From the sequence record NC_107631.1: a stretch of 50,078 nt of DNA. One strand, given 5' to 3'. The stretch is from a phage. Of the stretch, positions 1-50,078 are shown one piece after another. Each line of letters opens with the position of its first letter. Positions within the stretch are counted from its first letter, which is position 1. A program made the translations under genes and the position numbers. The notes below the pieces were generated by a model. The model was given only the letters and a program-made list of their open reading frames with translations. It ran no database searches and was not told the origin of the DNA.

Positions 1-409
1 AATCAAATTTAAATGCACTTCCGCAGAAAAAATCACAGGATTCGAAGTTAATAATCTGTACAAAGGTCGTGAGCACGACGACGGCACTCGCGAAGTAAAG
101 TTAAAATGCGGTAAGTATTTAAAACTTGAAAAGCATGATGAATTACATATTCACGGATCTGATGAAATCTTCTTCGCGAAGTTCACTGAGTTGAAAACAA
201 AGACGCTCAAGTGCACCGGACTTGACCATCGCAACCCGATGAAAAAATCATTCAAGGTTGGAAAGCGTTACCAGGTAGAAAGCGGTCGCGCTCTCGGTGC
301 TGTGGCTGGTTACATCTTTGATGAGGACGGTTGCCGCTGGACCTTATACAGATCCGATATTGGATTTGAGGTAGCTGACGGTACGAAGTTTGAAGGACTT
401 TACTCATGA
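1..409 (+). CDS. hypothetical protein, 5'-truncated at window edge
   Basis: Frame is open from position 2 to the stop at 407-409; internal repeats of K-x-K-C-T / F-E-V type; overlaps the next start (ATGA). Confidence 0.5.
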   Translation, partial: IKFKCTSAEKITGFEVNNLYKGREHDDGTREVKLKCGKYLKLEKHDELHIHGSDEIFFAKFTELKTKTLKCTGLDHRNPMKKSFKVGKRYQVESGRALGAVAGYIFDEDGCRWTLYRSDIGFEVADGTKFEGLYS

Positions 410-891
410 TAAATATAAGAGATGATTTTTTATATGTTGATGGAATTATTTATTATAAGAGTAACACTAGATTTAAAAACCTTGCTGGGAGAGAGGCTGG
501 AAAGTTAGATAGGCTGGGTTACTGTAGGTTTTATGATGGGTTTAGGATGGTTTATAGACATAGATATGTATGGACTATTTTTAACGGCCAGATACCTGAA
601 GGTATGGAAATAGACCACATAAACCATATACCAGGTGATGATAGAATTGAAAATTTAAGACTTGTAACTAGAGAAGGGAACACAACAAATAGAAGTCTAA
701 ATAAAAATAACACATCTGGCATGAATTGCATATACCCTATGAAATCAGGCTCTTACAGGGTAAGAGTTAGATTTAGGGGTAAGACTTACGGAAGGTGCGT
801 TGACACTGTTAGTGAGGCTATAGATTTAAGAGATTCAATACTCATTGATCTTGGTTTTCATGAGAATCACGGATCGAATAGCATTTTTTGA
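406..891 (+). CDS. HNH homing endonuclease (HNH plus AP2-like domain)
   Basis: IDHINHIPGDDRIENLRLVTREGN motif; tail resembles AP2 domain (YRVRVRFRGKTYGRCVDTVSEA); visibly AT-rich codon usage versus neighbours. Confidence 0.8.
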   Translation: MINIRDDFLYVDGIIYYKSNTRFKNLAGREAGKLDRLGYCRFYDGFRMVYRHRYVWTIFNGQIPEGMEIDHINHIPGDDRIENLRLVTREGNTTNRSLNKNNTSGMNCIYPMKSGSYRVRVRFRGKTYGRCVDTVSEAIDLRDSILIDLGFHENHGSNSIF

Positions 892-950
892 AAAACGCGT
901 GTACCATTGGCGGTGTATCATTTACACCGTCAACTAAGGAGTTTATTGTG

Positions 951-2519
951 ATGTTTAATATTAAGCCAAAACTGAATTACCAACAGATTATTGAGATCGC
1001 AAATAGCACTGGAGTTAATCCGGTGGCGATCGCAATTCGTGAAAACAGTTATGGGGATTCAGTTTCTTTTTGGCAAGATCCGATCGATATCAACAGCGGA
1101 AACGATAAGTTCCCTCTGATTTCGTTAGGTGGCGATAACCTGGTATTCGAATATGCAAAAGCAAAAGCTGAATCAGTCCAGTTCCCGGTTTCATCCGCGT
1201 ATGCTCATTTTATCGGTTGCATCTCAGCCGCGATGCTCGGGAAGTTTTGGGTGCAATATCATGGAGAAGAACAGCCGACAGCACTTTACATGGTAATCAG
1301 TCAGCCACCATCAACAGGTAAATCAGCGATTAACTCAGCGGCGATTACACCTATGCGTGCGGAGATTCAGCGACTGAATGAAGAGCGCAAAAAGGAACGT
1401 ATCCGTTTAACAAGTCAGCTACGTCAGGTCGAGAAGGAAATTAAAAACGATCCGAAGGGTAACACGACGGCGGCGCTGTACGAAGACAAGGAAAAACTGG
1501 AAGAAAAGATCAAGAAGATGGCTGATATTGTTTTTGCGGTATCAGATCCTACACCTGAAGGTCTTGCGAAGGTGGCGGCTGTTCAAGGTCACTTCTCCGT
1601 AATCTCTGATGAGGCAACAGCAATAAATACATTGCTGGGACTGACCTATGGCGGTTCTGATAAGAAATCAAACAGCGAGCTTATCCTTAAGGCGTGGGAT
1701 AAAAACCATATGGAGGTCGCGCGTTCAAATCAGGACAACAACTTATCTCTTTGCCCGGTCGGTTCGATCTGCGTCATTGCGCAGGATGAAACAATCAAGG
1801 GCATAATGGACGCAGGCCAGCGAGGTATCGGTGTATCTGAGCGTTTCCTATTGGTTCGCGAGGAACCGCTTTTAGGTACTCGTATTCTTTGCGATGAAAA
1901 TGGTGATGCGCTGTATAAGGAAGTCGATCGAGGGTTGGTGAGTAAATATTATCGACTCGTGCACAACATTATGAAAGAGGACAGCGTTGTTCTCTCTGTA
2001 AGCCGTAATGCTATGCGTGAATTGAACCTTGCGCGTCAGGCGATGGAGCCGGATTTCGCCGCAGGGGGTAAATACTCTCACTCAATGCTACGCGGTCATC
2101 TCGGCAAGTTCGATAAGCACGCCTTGCGTATTGCTTCAGTTCTCCACACAATCAAGAATTGGGAGGGTGAATCACCGAACCGTTCCAATCGTGAGATAGA
2201 TCTTGAAACAATGCAGGAAGCAATCATGATTTTTAATGAGCTTTCCAGAACTTATCTGTCGTCTGCCAGCGCCGCCGGGTATGCTGGTGATGAGGCTGAA
2301 TCTCGTAAGCTGATTGATGTTATCACTGAGATCGCAAAGAAGAACAAAGGTCGCGCACCTATTCATAGCATTGTTGCAAAGTGCCGTAACGTTACGCCGT
2401 TCAACGGTCAACAGAAAGTAGCTGAGCGAATCGACAGCCTGCTGATCACGCTCGAAGAGATGAACTACACTTGCCGCATTGATGATATTGTTTTCATCAA
2501 TCCTCGACTGATGGGTTAA
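951..2519 (+). CDS. putative replication-associated P-loop NTPase (DnaB-like Walker A)
   Basis: Start moved to Met22 of the track ORF, preceded by AAGGAG; ISQPPSTGKSAINSA resembles the DnaB RPSMGKTA Walker A; function is inferred only. Confidence 0.5.
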   Translation: MFNIKPKLNYQQIIEIANSTGVNPVAIAIRENSYGDSVSFWQDPIDINSGNDKFPLISLGGDNLVFEYAKAKAESVQFPVSSAYAHFIGCISAAMLGKFWVQYHGEEQPTALYMVISQPPSTGKSAINSAAITPMRAEIQRLNEERKKERIRLTSQLRQVEKEIKNDPKGNTTAALYEDKEKLEEKIKKMADIVFAVSDPTPEGLAKVAAVQGHFSVISDEATAINTLLGLTYGGSDKKSNSELILKAWDKNHMEVARSNQDNNLSLCPVGSICVIAQDETIKGIMDAGQRGIGVSERFLLVREEPLLGTRILCDENGDALYKEVDRGLVSKYYRLVHNIMKEDSVVLSVSRNAMRELNLARQAMEPDFAAGGKYSHSMLRGHLGKFDKHALRIASVLHTIKNWEGESPNRSNREIDLETMQEAIMIFNELSRTYLSSASAAGYAGDEAESRKLIDVITEIAKKNKGRAPIHSIVAKCRNVTPFNGQQKVAERIDSLLITLEEMNYTCRIDDIVFINPRLMG

Positions 2520-2523
2520 TGAT

Positions 2524-2931
2524 ATGCTTCTTCTTTTAGATCTGTTCAGGTTCTGCGAAGGTTACGACAAATACACTCGACAGCACATAGCGAAATTTAT
2601 ATACGCCCACAAGGAAAGTGAGCGATTTGCTAAGGCCGCTGGAATGACTCACCGTGAATTTACAAGTGCGCTATCTAAGGAGTTTTGCGCACGTTGCGTG
2701 ACTGAGGGTTATCTTGATTGCAAGGATGGGTTTTACTGGTGCAAGGGAAAGATTAAGCGCCCTGTAATGATGAAGCTGATGTGTATTGATGGCTACAACA
2801 ATCGGTATACGTGGGAAATGATGCACATTGGAGAGATGAGTGATGAAGATTTGTTTGGCGAACGTAGAAACATTGATAGATCGGAACGTCGAATTGTGCG
2901 CAAGGCTCCAGCTTACGAAAGAAGAATTTGA
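2524..2931 (+). CDS. hypothetical protein (Cys-rich, basic C-terminus)
   Basis: 135-aa ORF directly after the previous gene on the same strand; no recognisable motif. Confidence 0.5.
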   Translation: MLLLLDLFRFCEGYDKYTRQHIAKFIYAHKESERFAKAAGMTHREFTSALSKEFCARCVTEGYLDCKDGFYWCKGKIKRPVMMKLMCIDGYNNRYTWEMMHIGEMSDEDLFGERRNIDRSERRIVRKAPAYERRI

Positions 2932-6513: not shown

Positions 6514-6755
6514 ACGATCGTATCAGTTTTAAGTTCCTCTACGTCTTTCTGTATGATTGAAGGCCAATTCTCTATGTATTCATTTTTTATCTCATCGAAA
6601 GACATATCAAGAGAACTAGTGAACTCCCATAGATCGCAACCAATAACATCCTGAGTCAATCCGTTTTGCTCCATAATTTCGCAGCACGTAGCGCGATAAA
6701 GAAGCCATAAACCTTGCTCAGTTAATTTAACAGGAACCATTTTTTCGCTCATCAT
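6504..6755 (-). CDS. hypothetical protein
   Basis: 83-aa ORF overlapping the dam stop/start region; acidic. Confidence 0.5.
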   Translation of the reverse strand: MMSEKMVPVKLTEQGLWLLYRATCCEIMEQNGLTQDVIGCDLWEFTSSLDMSFDEIKNEYIENWPSIIQKDVEELKTDTIVQH

Positions 6756-7465
6756 ACTTTCCTCACCTTTGCTCGTTTGTTTTTAACCGAAGGGCAAATG
6801 CTTGTGATTGGGATATAGTGAGTCTGTTGCACCTCACCTTCTTTAAGTTCGCGCATAATAAAAATTACCGAACCTTTGTTATTGCCGTCTACTGCCTTTC
6901 CAGTTTCACCGGATATGAAAGCCAGGCGACCGGATCGAGCATACTCGTTGCCGTCAATATCTTCTGTCAAGTCAGCCTCAATCCAGATGATTTCAGCCGC
7001 GTGCTGTCGCGCCTCAGTAAACCACGCCGTAGAGTTATCTGTAGGTAAAAGCATATCGATCTGGTTGTTGTGCTCCATTTGCTCAATCGCCTTCTTGACG
7101 AATATATCAGGTCGACTGTAAGGAGGATTTAACCAAACGTGCTTATTCTTTCCCCACCAACGTTTTAAGCAGTTTGTTTCCTGAGAGTAAAACTTCTCGC
7201 AAACTTTATTTTCTTCGCTTGCCGCAGCGTCCAGATCATATTTTCCGTAACGCCCCTCAAGGTATGCGATAACCTCGCGTGGGGTTGACCATAAATCACG
7301 AACAGCGTCAGGCGTATTGGTCCCCTTGTATCTACGTCCTGAAATCTCTTTGCAGGTTGGCGTTTTCAATGCTTGATAATAACCGCCTGATGCTATTGCT
7401 TCGCGAGTGAATGAGCAACCAGTTTCTGCAAAGTCGATAGTTTTGATATCATTAAAGTCTTTCAT
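6752..7465 (-). CDS. dam: DNA N6-adenine methyltransferase (phage Dam type)
   Basis: Catalytic NPPY motif (WLNPPYS); size and context typical of phage Dam-like MTases. Confidence 0.8.
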   Translation of the reverse strand: MKDFNDIKTIDFAETGCSFTREAIASGGYYQALKTPTCKEISGRRYKGTNTPDAVRDLWSTPREVIAYLEGRYGKYDLDAAASEENKVCEKFYSQETNCLKRWWGKNKHVWLNPPYSRPDIFVKKAIEQMEHNNQIDMLLPTDNSTAWFTEARQHAAEIIWIEADLTEDIDGNEYARSGRLAFISGETGKAVDGNNKGSVIFIMRELKEGEVQQTHYIPITSICPSVKNKRAKVRKV

Positions 7466-7492: not shown

Positions 7493-7536
7493 ATAATGCC
7501 AGATTCCATCCCGGCAGTTTTAACAAGAAGTGCTAT
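7493..7536 (-). promoter_or_regulatory. dyad-motif middle promoter upstream of dam
   Basis: ATAGCAC-TTC-TTGTTAA then CATTAT/TATTAT 28 nt downstream. Confidence 0.5.
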
Positions 7537-10006: not shown

Positions 10007-10045
10007 ACACGGCATACAGTAAACGTTTTTAGCAAAAAGTGCTAT
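10002..10045 (-). promoter_or_regulatory. dyad-motif promoter driving the helicase operon, overlapping the divergent early promoter
   Basis: Dyad TTAGCAA-AAA-GTGCTAT (ATAGCAC-TTT-TTGCTAA on minus) with TATTAT 28 nt downstream on the minus strand; the same dyad lies in the 5'UTR of the plus-strand transcript. Confidence 0.5.
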
Positions 10046-11564: not shown

Positions 11565-11570
11565 CTGTGC

Positions 11571-13475: not shown

Positions 13476-13503
13476 CAAATCCCCGCATTGCGGGGATTTT
13501 TAT
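13476..13503. terminator. bidirectional intrinsic terminator
   Basis: AATCCCCG-cattg-CGGGGATT followed by TTTT; lies between convergent genes. Confidence 0.75.
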
Positions 13504-13919
13504 TAGAACGGAATATCGTCATCAAATGTTGACTGAGGGTTAGGTTGTGGTTGTTGTTGAGTTCGCTGTTGCTGCTGAGGTGATCTCTGTTGTTGATTGC
13601 TTTGCCCTCGTTGACTGAATACCAGCTTAGGGAAATCAGCAGCCTGCAATGAATTGTAAGTAGTTCCGTTGTGCTCACGGGATGAGATCTTCAACGTTTC
13701 GCAAGATACTGAAATTACCCGACCAACCTGAAACGCTTCACGATACCAATCAGCAAGGCCAGGCTTTCCACCATCGCTAAAAAAGAATGTGTAGTTGGTG
13801 TATTCACGATCGCCATCACGAGGCTTATAGCTTTCTGCCAGTTCGATGATATAAGTATTGCCGCCGTTACGTTCAAGAATCTTAGGTTCTTTGCGGATCT
13901 CGCCAGTTATAATATGCAT
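13503..13919 (-). CDS. ssb: single-stranded DNA-binding protein
   Basis: OB-fold-like N-terminus, Gln/Pro-rich linker, canonical acidic C-terminal tail DDDIPF. Confidence 0.85.
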   Translation of the reverse strand: MHIITGEIRKEPKILERNGGNTYIIELAESYKPRDGDREYTNYTFFFSDGGKPGLADWYREAFQVGRVISVSCETLKISSREHNGTTYNSLQAADFPKLVFSQRGQSNQQQRSPQQQQRTQQQPQPNPQSTFDDDIPF

Positions 13920-20986: not shown

Positions 20987-21033
20987 GATGTTTACCTTTT
21001 TGTGCTATTTATCGGTGAACCCATTATACAGGC

Positions 21034-27640: not shown

Positions 27641-27657
27641 ATAGCACTTTTTGTTAA
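27641..27657 (-). promoter_or_regulatory. dyad element immediately upstream of RBS
   Basis: TTAACAA-AAA-GTGCTAT on the coding strand, directly abutting CAACCAATCAGGAG. Confidence 0.5.
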
Positions 27658-40421: not shown

Positions 40422-40453
40422 TTTGATTTTCTCTCTTCGTTGTCGATGAGGTA

Positions 40454-40497
40454 ACTATATCAAATCACCCCATCGACGTTTTAGCAATTCGTGCTAT
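40454..40497 (-). promoter_or_regulatory. dyad-motif middle promoter
   Basis: ATAGCAC-GAA-TTGCTAA; TGaTATAGT extended -10 28 nt downstream inside inverted repeat GTCGATG..CATCGAC. Confidence 0.55.
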
Positions 40498-43802: not shown

Positions 43803-43842
43803 AGCTGATTCCTCTGATTGGTTGCCATGCTTCAATAAGGCC

Positions 43843-43886
43843 ACTATATCAAATGGCCTTGCGGAAGGTTTAGCAATTCGTGCTAT
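43843..43886 (-). promoter_or_regulatory. dyad-motif middle promoter (cassette family B)
   Basis: ATAGCAC-GAA-TTGCTAA then TGaTATAGT 28 nt downstream inside inverted repeat GGCCA..TGGCC. Confidence 0.55.
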
Positions 43887-44978: not shown

Positions 44979-45173
44979 TTAAGCCTCAGCAAAGTAAGTG
45001 TTAAAGCCTTTGAGTTTGTAGTCGCTACCTACGCGCACAACGTTCCAGGCAAGGCCCGAGTGATATGCAACCATATCCTCAAGGTCGATCGTGATTTCGG
45101 TTCCTTTCTTGAACAGACCCTTTTCATGAGTTGAGTCGCGCTGAACAACAACCACATCAATTTGAGTTTCCAT
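44979..45173 (-). CDS. hypothetical small protein
   Basis: Start moved to Met23, preceded by GAGGAAACGAAG, identical to the RBS of the gene at 46658..46828. Confidence 0.45.
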   Translation of the reverse strand: METQIDVVVVQRDSTHEKGLFKKGTEITIDLEDMVAYHSGLAWNVVRVGSDYKLKGFNTYFAEA

Positions 45174-45205
45174 CTTCGTTTCCTCTGTATCGTGTCGATG
45201 AGAAG

Positions 45206-45249
45206 ATAATACCCGATCCGCTCGATCGGGCTTTAACAAAAAGTGCTAT
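45206..45249 (-). promoter_or_regulatory. dyad-motif middle promoter (cassette family A)
   Basis: ATAGCAC-TTT-TTGTTAA then TATTAT 28 nt downstream after inverted repeat CCCGATC..GATCGGG. Confidence 0.55.
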
Positions 45250-46828: not shown

Positions 46829-46859
46829 CTTCGTTTCCTCGTTCGTTGTCGATGGGATA

Positions 46860-46903
46860 ACTATACCAAGCTATCCCGATCCAGCTTTAACAAAAAGTGC
46901 TAT
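46860..46903 (-). promoter_or_regulatory. dyad-motif middle promoter (cassette family A)
   Basis: ATAGCAC-TTT-TTGTTAA then TGgTATAGT 28 nt downstream inside inverted repeat GGGATA..TATCCC. Confidence 0.55.
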
Positions 46904-47493: not shown

Positions 47494-47608
47494 ATCTTTC
47501 TCCTCATTTTCAATATACACCATGATTAACATGTAACACTGTGTCTCTAATCGTAGTGTTACACGGCGACACGCTTGTGTCAAGGCTTGCGAGCCGATTT
47601 TAAGCGTG

Positions 47609-47635
47609 GTTAATCGTGTTAATCGTGTTAATCGC
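47609..47635. repeat. tandem direct repeat (GTTAATCGT)x3
   Basis: Three consecutive 9-bp units in the divergent control region, next to GTGTTACA sites. Confidence 0.7.
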
Positions 47636-47699
47636 TTTTCCCATATAAATATGAGCCGATAAAACTACTGTATATATAAACATGAATATAATAACCAGA

Positions 47700-47830
47700 G
47701 CATCCAACGATTAACATAGTAGACACGCTATACATCCATATTACAAATAATAGTATCTATATATATAAATAAAAAAAACACTTATATATTATATATATAC
47801 ATATATCTATATGTATATTATAAGGCGTAA
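47700..47830. repeat. AT-rich low-complexity block with TATATATA runs
   Basis: Extended TA-rich sequence resembling the block at about 16060-16125. Confidence 0.6.
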
Positions 47831-47911
47831 TTTGGTGTAATTTTGTCTACGATTGCGATTTAGGCAAATCATATACATGGATTAACACACAATCAAGCGT
47901 AATCGTAATTG

Positions 47912-47928
47912 ATAGCACTTTTTGCTAA
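47912..47928 (+). promoter_or_regulatory. dyad element without an obvious -10 partner
   Basis: ATAGCAC-TTT-TTGCTAA; no -10-like hexamer at +28 on either strand. Confidence 0.4.
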
Positions 47929-48116
47929 AAATGGAGATGACTACCAGGCGAACCGGGTAACACCAATTCCTCCCTCTCACAATCATTGCAATCTCAGCAA
48001 CAAATCAACCAACTGTTGCACACCATGCAATAATCACGTTTCATCATTCGCAATCAATAACAATCAAAATTATTCCACCTATTCCAGTATTGATGGAATA
48101 ATGAGCAATTATTGAA

Positions 48117-48161
48117 ATAGCATTTTTCGCTAACGACTTGACCAGGTTGTCAGGGTATAGT
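48117..48161 (+). promoter_or_regulatory. dyad-motif promoter (degenerate) for the rightward early genes
   Basis: ATAGCAT-TTT-TCGCTAA then TATAGT about 29 nt downstream; followed by CAACCAATCAGGAG RBS cassette. Confidence 0.45.
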
Positions 48162-48193
48162 TCGGGCCATCAACCAATCAGGAGAATCACCAT

Positions 48194-48424
48194 ATGGCAA
48201 TCAAACACCCTGGATTAAAGAAAGCAATCCAGCGCGCCAATGACGAGGGATTCATTGTCTACCGCACACATTACGGTCACATGGGTGGATTAAAAGAGCA
48301 TCATACAAAGGTTGAGCTTGTCGACCTTTGGGAAGATTACGATACATTCCAGTATATCGCCACGTCTGACGTAGAGGCGCAAGTGAAATACATCAACGAT
48401 ACAATTGATAGTTTTAGAGGGTGA
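48194..48424 (+). CDS. hypothetical early protein
   Basis: 76 aa; conserved CAACCAATCAGGAG RBS. Confidence 0.5.
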   Translation: MAIKHPGLKKAIQRANDEGFIVYRTHYGHMGGLKEHHTKVELVDLWEDYDTFQYIATSDVEAQVKYINDTIDSFRG

Positions 48425-48428
48425 TTAC

Positions 48429-48800
48429 ATGTTTAAACAATTCGTAGACCTTGACTTCTCAGCAAGCACAGCAATCCAGACTGACGAGAAAGAGAACGTA
48501 GCGATCGAGAACATTGCTCGCAAGATTTACAACAAGCAAGAGAAGGCAGTGAGAGCCGCTCTAAGCGCTTATTACGGTGTAAGTGATGCAATGGAGTGTG
48601 TTAACCGTGTAACGCGCGTGGTGGACCGTTCTGGCGCGTCTCGTTTCGTCGATGACGATACTGGCGAAACAATCATCCAGCTTAACAATCCATCCATGCG
48701 CACCGAGCTTGGCAATATTGCATTATGGGGCGTGGCTAACTACTCAATCACCGTGAACTCCTGCATTGCGGGTCGCGTCAAGGAGGCATTATATGAGTGA
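48429..48800 (+). CDS. hypothetical early protein
   Basis: Start moved to Met9 with AGAGGG RBS; 123 aa. Confidence 0.5.
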   Translation: MFKQFVDLDFSASTAIQTDEKENVAIENIARKIYNKQEKAVRAALSAYYGVSDAMECVNRVTRVVDRSGASRFVDDDTGETIIQLNNPSMRTELGNIALWGVANYSITVNSCIAGRVKEALYE

Positions 48801-48993
48801 TAATATTTACCGCGTAGTGGCGATCTCACGTAAGACACAGAAGAGAGCGATCGCTTACATGGGTAGTAGCGCCATTGAAGCTACGGACGCTTTCGAATTG
48901 CTAAAGAATAATGAAGGATTTATGAACACGTTCCGCGTTCGACTTGAGCGCCTCGAACCTGTTATCATTGATGAAGCGCGAAAGCTATCCTGA
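48793..48993 (+). CDS. hypothetical early protein
   Basis: Start moved to Met10 with AGGAGG RBS; overlaps the previous stop. Confidence 0.5.
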   Translation: MSDNIYRVVAISRKTQKRAIAYMGSSAIEATDAFELLKNNEGFMNTFRVRLERLEPVIIDEARKLS

Positions 48994-49010
48994 ATGGTTA
49001 AGGGGGAGTA

Positions 49011-49331
49011 ATGAACCACACTTACAAAATCACAACGAAGTCACCGAAGATTAACGGAAGCACGGTTGCGGCACTGAATAACGCGGCGGCAATTCACGAA
49101 AAAAATATCATGGAGCGCGTGAAGGCAGCGGTAGGTAGATTCTACGGGATCAATGCCGACATTGCCGACAGCAAGCGACTGTTCAAATACGTTCCAGGTC
49201 ATCCATATGGCAGGATGATTGATATCAAGCATGATAAAGAACTGGTTCGAATCGGATCGCTTAGCGTTGACGAGTTCGACCATAGCATCAACCTGGTTAC
49301 GGCATATCAAACATGGGACGGTAAAAAATGA
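49011..49331 (+). CDS. hypothetical early protein
   Basis: 106 aa; RBS AAGGGGGAG. Confidence 0.5.
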   Translation: MNHTYKITTKSPKINGSTVAALNNAAAIHEKNIMERVKAAVGRFYGINADIADSKRLFKYVPGHPYGRMIDIKHDKELVRIGSLSVDEFDHSINLVTAYQTWDGKK

Positions 49332-49471
49332 TTTATGTTCACACCTTTTATACAGGAAAGTTTAACAGCGTAAAAAATGTTCGCGTTTACGATAGTCACC
49401 AAAAAGCAATGATGCAGAGAGTAGTGCTAGGAGGAACAATCAAAGAGTGCAAAGTAATCTCTGAGTACTGA
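49328..49471 (+). CDS. hypothetical very small protein, not in ORF track
   Basis: ATG overlapping the previous stop (ATGA); coordinates approximate. Confidence 0.25.
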   Translation: MIYVHTFYTGKFNSVKNVRVYDSHQKAMMQRVVLGGTIKECKVISEY

Positions 49472-49515
49472 TAGCACAAATTGCTAAAGACACACACCGG
49501 GGAGTGAGTTATATT
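49471..49515 (+). promoter_or_regulatory. dyad-motif promoter
   Basis: ATAGCAC-AAA-TTGCTAA then TTATAT(T) 28-29 nt downstream inside inverted repeat GGGAGT..ACTCCC. Confidence 0.5.
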
Positions 49516-49548
49516 ACTCCCACACCAAACGAAACAAAGGAATCAAAA

Positions 49549-49773
49549 ATGAGCATTAAAGTTGAGAATATCATCAAGCACTTGAACGCAAAAGGTCGTG
49601 TAGTTATCAAAATGGATAAGTCTTCCGGTTTTATTTCAATGACGGTAACTAAGACCCGTAACGGTAATAACGTTATTGGCAGCACGCCAGGCTCGCACTT
49701 AGTAAATGCAACAGATGCGGATGTGCGCGCTACGCTTGAGGCTAACTCAATTTACATTAATTCATGGAGTTAA
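49549..49773 (+). CDS. hypothetical early protein
   Basis: Start moved to Met16 with AAAGGA RBS; 74 aa. Confidence 0.5.
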   Translation: MSIKVENIIKHLNAKGRVVIKMDKSSGFISMTVTKTRNGNNVIGSTPGSHLVNATDADVRATLEANSIYINSWS

Positions 49774-49777
49774 TTTA

Positions 49778-49990
49778 ATGGAACGGGATAATTTCTGGAC
49801 TCGTTATTTTGGCGCTCTTGATGCTGGTCTTAGTGCTGAATGGTGTATCAAGGTAGCGTATAAAGAAATAACGCTTGAAGAGGCTTTGGGTGATATGAAT
49901 ATGGACGAAGAAAGTGAGTTTGATCCTGATTTTGAATTACCAGAAGAACCAAAAAACGAAGATTTAGACGACGATTATATCCCGTGGTAA
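49778..49990 (+). CDS. small acidic protein with SSB-tail-like C-terminus
   Basis: Start moved to Met25 with GGAG RBS; C-terminal DEESEFDPDFELPEEPKNEDLDDDYIPW. Confidence 0.5.
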   Translation: MERDNFWTRYFGALDAGLSAEWCIKVAYKEITLEEALGDMNMDEESEFDPDFELPEEPKNEDLDDDYIPW

Positions 49991-50034
49991 ATAGCACGAT
50001 TTGTTAATATTGCCGTAAGGTCATTTGATAAAGT
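49991..50034 (+). promoter_or_regulatory. dyad-motif promoter (cassette family B)
   Basis: ATAGCAC-GAT-TTGTTAA then TGaTAAAGT 28 nt downstream inside inverted repeat; the whole cassette is near-identical to the one at 43803..43886. Confidence 0.55.
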
Positions 50035-50070
50035 GGCCTTATTCAAGATAACCAATCAGGAGTTAACACC

Positions 50071-50078
50071 ATGAAAAA
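50071..50078 (+). CDS. start of a gene truncated by the window end
   Basis: ATG AAA AA following the conserved AACCAATCAGGAG cassette. Confidence 0.4.

Follow-up and report, generated by a model that had tools for sequence, protein, structure and literature searches.

A conserved, probably early gene block of T1-like phages and its marbox-like putative promoter repeat in a Tunavirus genome

The class I genes 0.3-0.7 of T7, the pre-early genes of T5 and the early small open reading frames (ORFs) of T4 are early small-gene clusters of virulent coliphages. Among the T1-like phages, the closest described block is T1 ORF1 to ORF5, known from the T1 genome (Roberts et al. 2004, PMID 14972552), and the closest described regulatory element is the 21-nucleotide (nt) direct repeat of phage TLS, aaATAGCACnnnTTGnTAAAA, all copies of which point along the direction of transcription and whose function was left open among a stoperator, an enhancer and an UP-like element, the same study finding only three sigma-70 promoters (PMC11447400). 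On the host side, the published Escherichia coli marbox consensus reads AYnGCACnnWnnRYYAAAY (PMC3709825). Class II MarA/SoxS/Rob promoters carry the box in forward orientation, overlapping the -35 and centred near -41, with no recognisable -35, and Rob, which is constitutively abundant, makes contact in this register with both the GCAC and the B site and dislodges sigma region 4 from the -35. Finally, Gp54 of phage Bas11 is the one small Drexlerviridae protein for which a solved structure and an immune interaction are described, as it activates the defence toxin CapRelSJ46 (PMC11578894). Here we compare with these systems a cluster of six small genes, A to F, at 48194-49773 (+) of the 50,078-nt phage sequence NC_107631.1, the whole of which we refer to as the window, together with the repeated element that lies ahead of its predicted transcription units.

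On balance, we read the cluster as a conserved early block of T1-like phages, in which early operons assisted by the host regulators Rob, MarA and SoxS would encode small binder proteins. The window is a complete, circularly permuted Tunavirus genome, because an ORF that begins at 50071 (+) runs on in frame at positions 1-409 and, once joined, gives a 138-amino-acid (aa) orthologue of T1 ORF7; the right edge is therefore arbitrary, an assembly artefact rather than a physical end. Positions 47500-50078 match 70 phage records by megablast, all of them Escherichia or Shigella T1-like phages at 86-91% identity, and the annotated relatives belong to the Drexlerviridae, Tunavirinae, genus Tunavirus. 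A first-pass annotation had described a rightward cluster of five to six small genes here, and six forward genes indeed fill 48194-49773 exactly, followed by two further genes that we include for context:

48194-48424 (+): gene A, 76 aa, isoelectric point (pI) 5.9
48429-48800 (+): gene B, 123 aa, pI 5.0, T1 ORF1
48793-48993 (+): gene C, 66 aa, pI 9.3, T1 ORF2
49011-49331 (+): gene D, 106 aa, pI 9.5, T1 ORF3
49328-49471 (+): gene E, 47 aa, pI 9.5, T1 ORF4
49549-49773 (+): gene F, 74 aa, pI 9.9, T1 ORF5
49778-49990 (+): gene G, 70 aa, pI 4.05, T1 ORF6, co-transcribed with F and lying beyond A to F proper
50071-50078 joined to 1-409 (+): gene H, 138 aa, T1 ORF7

As a gene block the locus is ordinary, being another copy of the T1 ORF1-5 block that has been annotated as hypothetical since 2004; the interesting part is how it appears to be read. 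The motif ATAGCAN6GCTAA occurs 20 times in the window against 1.0 expected, and the repeat to which it belongs is the known Drexlerviridae 21-nt direct repeat of TLS, T1, Rtp and Rogue1. A search with the marbox consensus returned 23 sites at no more than one mismatch, compared with 2.1 ± 1.4 in shuffled sequences, and 14 of these are perfect where about 0.05 perfect sites would be expected by calculation; the repeat fits the consensus at all 13 specified positions. Across 24 sites, G4, C5, A16 and A17 are invariant (24/24), while A6, G13 and T15 are found in 23, C7 in 22 and A18 in 21. Twenty of the 24 boxes, the three cluster promoters included, lie on the strand of the adjacent genes, the site at 10028 being assigned to the leftward gene at a divergent junction. 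Furthermore, in 15 of the 20 copies the 17-mer is followed, at a distance of exactly 21-22 nt, by the start of a -10-like hexamer, often with TG at -15/-14; measured from the 20-bp box, the hexamer lies 18 bp downstream at most of the 24 sites, three more having it at 17 or 19 bp, and in TLS and the Salmonella phage PMBT35 the 18-bp distance holds in 11 of 11 repeat copies. The calculated chance of a -10 hexamer at one fixed position is about 0.016 per site.

No recognisable -35 accompanies these hexamers at 16-18 bp, the canonical position reading AAAACn, and a simple sigma-70 consensus scan, which found 6 promoters against 7.4 expected, picked up none of the repeat promoters. Several other assignments were tried and rejected: TTGCTA within the repeat as a -35, because 22 nt separate it from the -10 hexamer; a dimer operator of symmetric form (TAGCA-N5-TGCTA), in favour of an asymmetric site, given the strict orientation and the marbox fit; and a sigma-54 promoter (TGGCAC-N5-TTGC), for a spacing 2 nt too short. 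The closest host counterpart is micF of E. coli K-12, which as checked on its sequence carries the box ACAGCACTGAATGTCAAAAC, then 18 bp, then TAGAAT; at one phage site the box ATAGCACGAATTGCTAAAAC is likewise separated by 18 bp from TAGAAT, and the phage boxes are identical to the micF box at 14-15 of 20 positions. Sequence, orientation and spacing together strongly support identification of the repeat as a class II marbox, and activation by the host factors is what this identification predicts. The dyad-type promoters of the first-pass annotation are thus real as repeated elements, although the motif is oriented and asymmetric rather than dyadic, and marbox-like at the class II distance from the -10. 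What is new here is the -10 at a fixed distance, the fit to the marbox consensus and the class II geometry of a repeat that was itself already known. A scan of viral contigs for the repeat found multi-copy loci in contigs of about 50 kb among the matches listed.

The promoters of the cluster are the following, with start positions as predicted from the -10 hexamers:

48117-48136 (+): P_A box, ATAGCATTTTTCGCTAACGA, a weaker variant with GCAT for GCAC and C at position 18
48156-48161 (+): P_A -10 hexamer TATAGT, 19 bp after the box, predicted start about 48168
49471-49490 (+): P_F box, ATAGCACAAATTGCTAAAGA, a perfect consensus match
49500-49521 (+): P_F hairpin GGGAGT...ACTCCC with the -10 TATATT (49510-49515) in its loop, predicted start about 49522, folding z -1.44
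49991-50034 (+): P_H, box ATAGCACGATTTGTTAATAT (49991-50010), 18 bp, extended -10 TGaTAAAGT (50029-50034) in a hairpin loop, predicted start about 50041, z -1.82

The GCAT variant of P_A is kept at the equivalent first promoter of T1, Sfin-3, ISF001 and TLS. We propose that these promoters define two translationally coupled transcription units, A-B-C-D-E and F-G, and that a third unit follows, in which P_H would drive gene H, an HNH gene, the helicase and a helix-turn-helix (HTH) protein. Host sigma-70 RNA polymerase would start each unit at a promoter composed of a forward 20-bp marbox-like element, an 18-19 bp spacer and a -10 often preceded by TG; with no usable -35 available, host Rob, MarA and SoxS would replace -35 recognition in class II fashion. 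Rob is the likeliest factor to fire the promoters upon DNA entry, since it is constitutive and abundant. The products, at 47-123 aa non-enzymatic and lineage-restricted, would most likely exert their effects stoichiometrically, through binding to macromolecules of the host or the phage during the establishment of infection, with B and D as diverged paralogues, A as a swapped cassette, C, E and F conserved beyond the genus, and F-G going with the replication module.

The genes are arranged with the tight coupling and overlapping stops and starts noted at first pass. The spacing is +4 between A and B, -8 between B and C (ATGAGTGA), +17 between C and D and -4 (ATGA) between D and E; F follows E after 77 nt that hold a promoter, G follows F after 4 nt, and H follows G after 80 nt, again with a promoter. 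A Shine-Dalgarno sequence is present ahead of every gene from A to F, and B, C and F start at the ATG that follows it rather than at the start of the longest TTG/GTG ORF, in agreement with the lengths annotated in Sfin-3 and T1. In Nei-Gojobori comparisons with T1 and Sfin-3, the ratio of non-synonymous to synonymous substitution rates (dN/dS) is 0.03-0.22 across B to F (B 0.10-0.22, C 0.03, D 0.03-0.06, E 0.03-0.05, F 0.04-0.08) at dS of up to 0.6, and gene A differs from its Sfin-3 counterpart by 6 synonymous and 0 non-synonymous changes. A to F are real genes under purifying selection. That some of the ORFs are chance open frames is a view suggested by their very small size (47-76 aa) and the lack of a family assignment, and one to which we give almost no credence, as every ORF has a Shine-Dalgarno sequence, length and order are kept in at least 18 genomes, the dN/dS values are those just given, and each ORF has a full-length match to a PHROG family. 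Rfam and tRNA scans of the cluster region gave no match.

Genes B to F correspond over their full length to T1 ORF1 to ORF5, with amino acid identities, by tblastn against the T1 locus, of 75% (B), 98% (C), 96% (D and E) and 93% (F). The re-annotated T1 record shows the same order, ORF1 to ORF7 being B to H, all annotated as hypothetical; after them come genes for an HNH endonuclease, for a helicase/ATPase of the DUF3987 type and for an HTH protein. In 18 Tunavirus loci C-D-E-F-G-H stand in this order without exception, and the block keeps its position between a long non-coding region and the ORF7/HNH/helicase module, which continues into window positions 1-2931. The neighbour in that module is

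406-891 (+): HNH homing endonuclease (PF13392), between ORF7 (H) and the helicase gene

and the region of this gene is low in G+C, with 0.38 in the first kilobase, T1 having an HNH gene at the same junction.

The genes differ in how far they reach, counted among 50,697 phage records. Gene A is found in 17 records, of Tunavirus only, and is absent from T1 and ISF001; it stands outside the core T1 ORF1-ORF5 block and is accessory. Homologues of B are confined to Tunavirus, with 35 clusters among 5.8 billion proteins, and D has 63 records, every one of them from Tunavirus (82-99% identity), with 3 clusters among the same 5.8 billion proteins. Gene C occurs in 131 records of Tunavirinae and Tempevirinae, TLS gp80 included, gene E in 318 records of Drexlerviridae and some Vequintavirinae, and gene F in 679 records across the whole of the Drexlerviridae. 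From 1.84 billion proteins, a profile of F gathers only 29 clusters at 50% identity, and these are almost all stand-alone proteins of 71-78 aa; word-indexed homologue searches for B, D and F returned close relatives only, and a scan of viral contigs with the F protein returned Tunavirus loci only. The N-terminal domain of G is family-wide, in 453 records. The earlier label of small unknown proteins therefore holds in that the products are unassigned in function and lineage-restricted, but they are not anonymous, as B to F are T1 ORF1 to ORF5 and only A is accessory.

Likewise, the earlier finding that none of the proteins could be assigned a family stands after wider searching. Pfam, NCBIfam and PADLOC scans of A to H gave nothing above threshold (best Pfam E values 0.026-0.12, nothing at all from NCBIfam and PADLOC), and these scans include no match to a DNA-binding family for any cluster protein; the PHROG matches are full-length, with E values from 1e-25 to 1e-79, and all fall in six families of unknown function (phrog_13365, 11577, 6503, 10555, 3955 and 4344), gene A in phrog_13365 and gene E in phrog_3955. 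A phmmer search of A to G against all PDB chains gave no match with an E value below 0.08, the family profile of F found nothing in PDB or Pfam, and the sole PDB match of the C profile, 21nr_A, was rejected as an artefact of four identical 16-residue matches in a repeat protein. In the PDB chain searches, A to G show no sequence similarity to solved counter-defence or takeover proteins. Sensitive profile and structure searches, the check put forward at first pass, yielded no family of known function and, for B, a fold without a solved analogue.

Gene B, whose product is acidic (pI 5.0) where those of C, D, E and F are basic (pI 9.3-9.9), gave an AlphaFold2 model with a predicted local distance difference test (pLDDT) score of 89 and a predicted template-modelling score (pTM) of 0.81. 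In the model, the protein adopts an alpha+beta arrangement of a beta-hairpin, a 30-residue helix, a five-stranded sheet and a C-terminal helix. Foldseek comparison with the PDB found no solved analogue, the best E value being 0.02 and the template-modelling (TM) score at most 0.37. An SRPBCC/START/Bet v 1 helix-grip fold (best PDB E values 0.02-0.1, TM 0.22-0.37, root-mean-square deviation 8-11 Å) and a tail-terminator-like fold (weak resemblance only, TM at most 0.37) were both rejected. Against the viral predicted-structure library BFVD, the B model matches a set of Drexlerviridae proteins of unknown function, among them A0A2D1GQ25 (TM 0.65/0.74, E 1.4e-4), which by exact look-up is the ISF001 orthologue of D. 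BLASTP gives no match between B and D, and hhalign gives a weak collinear one (E 0.0033, probability 9.6%), so that sequence comparison alone would be insufficient; we accept the relationship on the strength of the match between the B model and the BFVD model of the D orthologue, and on these models B and D are remote paralogues sharing a Drexlerviridae-specific fold.

The downstream genes F, G and H raise a different possibility. Their homologues lie directly 5' of the DUF3987 helicase gene in T1, TLS, PMBT35 and this phage. That F-G-H accompany the replicative helicase module throughout the family is equally compatible with a role linked to replication; for F-G, such a role is as plausible as an anti-defence one. 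In gene G, a conserved N-terminal domain of 42 aa is followed by a variable, acidic linker (net charge about -17) and by the C-terminus DDD(D)YIPW, which is invariant in all intact Tunavirus copies and resembles the tip DDDIPF of the E. coli single-stranded DNA-binding protein (SSB). Homologues of G in TLS, PMBT35 and other genera end in ...CxC...CxxCFPF or CVPFL, so that a terminal hydrophobic-Pro-aromatic tip is kept across the family, and the phage's own SSB-like ORF at 13503-13919 (-) ends in ...STFDDDIPF, the canonical E. coli SSB C-terminal tip. From its sequence, G may be a mimic of the SSB tail that targets SSB-interacting host proteins. On this evidence the block, or at least F-G and perhaps C-E, could be an accessory replication or recombination module that loads or regulates the phage helicase-primase or redirects host replication and repair proteins. 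The family-wide spread of F and of the G N-terminal domain speaks for such a module, as do the shared position 5' of the helicase gene, the SSB-like endings of G and of the phage SSB, and the strong purifying selection on D, E and F, which suits core functions better than arms-race genes. We nevertheless regard it as unlikely for the block, given that Pfam, NCBIfam, PADLOC, PDB sequence and B-model Foldseek searches found no sequence or fold link to any replication protein, that B and D are confined to one genus and that gene A is clearly accessory.

Gene A occupies a variable slot between the first promoter and gene B. The distance between the two is 59 nt in T1, where the slot holds no gene, 294 nt in this phage, where it holds gene A only, and up to 2061 nt in relatives, where 1-4 promoters and 0-6 genes are found, the latter comprising that of a 234-aa methyltransferase and as many as five small ones. 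In the relatives, a separate copy of the promoter repeat and a similar leader lie 5' of each slot cassette. In this phage, a 13-nt leader and ribosome-binding segment, AACCAATCAGGAG, is identical at 48172-48184, before A, and at 50050-50062, before H, and close variants of it precede several leftward genes as well as cassettes of the relatives. Recombination between repeated promoter-leader modules is the likely way in which cassettes have been gained and lost. The 126-aa protein that occupies the slot in other Tunaviruses has a 15-aa N-terminal motif in common with gene A. Slot occupants in Shfl1, ISF001 and ISF002 are proteins of 126, 111, 81, 70, 61 (two kinds), 59 and 57 aa, of which only one has a Pfam match (DUF7421), and together they form a pool of uncharacterised accessory genes. 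The 234-aa protein is an extra DNA methyltransferase that is absent from this phage. The phage's own T1-type Dam methyltransferase, with which the 234-aa enzyme was compared and found not to be homologous, is encoded at 6752-7465 (-) (PF05869, E 1.7e-69) behind its own marbox-type promoter (box at 7519).

Because it sits in this recombination-prone slot of swapped, promoter-led cassettes, gene A would be the best candidate of the cluster for a host-range or counter-defence factor, and it is mainly for A that an anti-defence role is plausible. The one circumstantial support for a takeover or anti-defence role is this placement of A in a hypervariable slot where relatives carry the extra methyltransferase.

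Upstream of P_A lies the long non-coding region that separates the cluster from its leftward counterpart:

47584-48193: conserved non-coding region, 610 nt, between two divergent early clusters
47912-47931 (+): orphan box, ATAGCACTTTTTGCTAAAAA, a perfect marbox with no -10 hexamer 18-19 bp 3' of it, kept in Sfin-3 and ISF001

Across Tunavirus the identity of this region is 77-95%; some Klebsiella phages match it more weakly, and nearly all records leave it unannotated. It contains three tandem GTTAATC copies (about 47611-47634) and AT-rich palindromes (47738-47821) besides the orphan marbox at 47912. The T1 and TLS reference records were both opened in the equivalent region, and according to the SU57 paper T1-like phages have pac and the terminal repeat in the corresponding untranslated region, flanked by small ORFs. 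We consider 47584-48193 a probable pac, terminal-repeat and regulatory region, which may also hold an origin. The cluster probably adjoins the first-packaged end, because the T1 and TLS records were opened there and because of the pac placement in SU57. The supposition that the cluster lies at the genome entry end is borne out in so far as it adjoins this region, whereas the edge of the window itself is no genome end, and the circularly permuted sequence shows neither where the cut is made nor in which direction the DNA enters.

Beyond the cluster, a marbox-type box with a -10 hexamer lies ahead of nearly every early or middle transcription unit genome-wide, and the leftward early region at 40-47 kb has seven boxes in a row, one per 0.5-1.5 kb:

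4508, 6164, 6496, 7519, 10028, 14669, 40480, 41775, 42295, 43869, 44492, 45232 and 46886 (-): boxes with a -10 hexamer
10494, 48117, 49471 and 49991 (+): boxes with a -10 hexamer

A further box, at 11570 (-), departs from the class II layout, as it is antisense and placed between two genes of the forward strand.

At most sites the -10 hexamer falls in the loop of an inverted repeat whose arm sequences differ from site to site while the structure is kept; examples are found at 40433-40480, 43822-43869, 46839-46886, 49500-49521 and 50017-50041. The folding z-scores of the hairpins are modest, from -1.2 to -3.1, and P_A and the orphan box at 47912 are no different from shuffled sequences. Intrinsic termination was rejected as a role for them, as no U-tract is present. 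A wider version of that idea is that the repeats and hairpins are not promoters but terminators, processing sites or nut-like hairpins, the cluster being read from one upstream promoter. It can draw on the capacity of the repeat itself to form a 5-bp stem with a 5-nt loop, on the presence of two copies in 5' leaders, on the absence of any excess of canonical promoters in the sigma-70 scan and on the practice of the SA32RD annotators, who call equivalent hairpins rho-independent terminators. We hold it to be very unlikely, as besides the missing U-tracts two of the cluster's own promoter regions have no significant hairpin, and the -10 keeps its fixed 18-19 bp in most of the 24 copies, and in all 11 of the distant relatives, despite differing hairpin arms.

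Several points weigh against reading the cluster as host-activated early operons. P_A, at 48117, is the poorest marbox of the cluster, with 2 mismatches and 19-bp spacing, and the SA32RD annotation calls the very hairpin stretch equivalent to 49500-49521 a terminator. Four boxes lie off the class II layout, at 20991 and 38649 (-) and at 27641 and 31404 (+), so that a second role of the element is possible. Host marboxes are less tightly conserved than the repeat, in which positions 2, 3, 11 and 12 are nearly invariant; this could mean a dedicated and possibly phage-encoded binding protein of an unrecognised type, and the TLS authors proposed stoperator, enhancer or UP-element roles for it (PMC11447400). 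On the protein side, D's own AlphaFold2 model, built on a 4-sequence alignment, reached a pLDDT of only 50 and was not used for fold searching, and the protein evidence does not separate takeover, counter-defence, replication-accessory and regulatory roles. Early timing, dependence on Rob, MarA or SoxS and every protein function are, moreover, matters that we infer.

As to the surroundings of the four off-layout boxes, those at 20991 and 38649 lie in 5' leaders just 3' of a terminator and a -10-like element, immediately 5' of the gene of the small-terminase region and of a 1139-aa tail gene, and those at 27641 and 31404 lie antisense within the late region.

The tight conservation in particular leads to the alternative that the repeat is bound by a phage-encoded factor, namely F, E, C, D or the downstream HTH protein, rather than by host Rob, MarA or SoxS, so that the cluster would encode its own regulators. 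The repeat is family-wide, as is F; C, D, E and F are basic; a few boxes are positioned off the class II activation layout; and enhancer-binding or stoperator roles of the kind suggested for TLS would suit such a factor. The first promoters, however, must fire before any phage protein exists, and the box is strictly oriented and asymmetric, matching a monomer-bound marbox at all 13 positions and at the micF spacing. A Pfam scan of 35 non-structural phage ORFs, moreover, found no AraC/XylS-type or other double-HTH protein, and the cluster proteins match no DNA-binding family. We consider a phage-encoded activator decidedly unlikely, and activation by the host regulators remains the reading we prefer.

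Taken one step further, host activation would mean that in T1-like phages (Drexlerviridae) most early and middle transcription depends on class II activation by host Rob, MarA and SoxS, and RamA in Klebsiella, at near-consensus marboxes that stand in for -35 elements; at least one cluster protein might tune the pathway, for example by releasing sequestered Rob or stabilising MarA or SoxS, and B and D would represent a new fold family of early effectors. We offer this combined picture tentatively, as possible though somewhat doubtful. If true, it would couple the efficiency of infection to the host's antibiotic, oxidative-stress and bile response. Among the papers listed by a literature search, none linked MarA, Rob or SoxS with T1-like phages. 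Confirmation of the promoter reading would explain a T1-like repeat whose function was left open in the 2024 TLS paper as a host marbox, and would link a phage family notorious as a laboratory contaminant and relevant to therapy with host regulators of multidrug resistance. The cluster itself resolves into parts that invite different questions: a swap-prone slot (A) in which to search for counter-defence, the constrained genus-level paralogues B and D with their unsolved fold, and the family-wide C, E and F.

Set beside the described systems, the block is closest to T1 ORF1 to ORF5 (CPTT1_079 to CPTT1_075), whose orthologues are found in more than 60 Tunavirus genomes and which have the same order, lengths and overlaps as B to F. 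It differs from T1 in having gene A between the first promoter and ORF1, where T1 has no such gene, and from Sfin-3, ISF001, Shfl1 and others in lacking the 234-aa methyltransferase cassette and the other small slot cassettes. Like Gp54 of Bas11, the trigger of CapRelSJ46, which is non-essential, A to G are small Drexlerviridae proteins, yet none of A to H matches the Gp54 family (PF25180). The Gp54-family gene of this phage is the ORF at 44979-45239 (-), with a PF25180 match at E 6.9e-35. Although A to G show no homology in Pfam and PDB sequence searches to Ocr, Gp0.7, Gp2, A1/A2, Alc or similar proteins, the cluster resembles those of T7, T5 and T4 in its small, lineage-restricted and tightly packed genes, probably placed beside the first-expressed end of the genome and predicted to be read by host RNA polymerase.

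For the promoters, comparison with the TLS description (PMC11447400) adds the placement of the repeat at a fixed 18-19 bp from the -10 hexamer and its match to the marbox consensus. The class II promoter of E. coli micF has the same 20+18+6 layout as the phage promoters, forward and without a -35, the phage start sites being predicted ones. Compared with host marboxes in general, the phage boxes are much closer to the consensus and their -10 usually lies inside a hairpin; and, in contrast to host class II promoters, it is a virulent phage that here uses the element at nearly every early and middle transcription unit.

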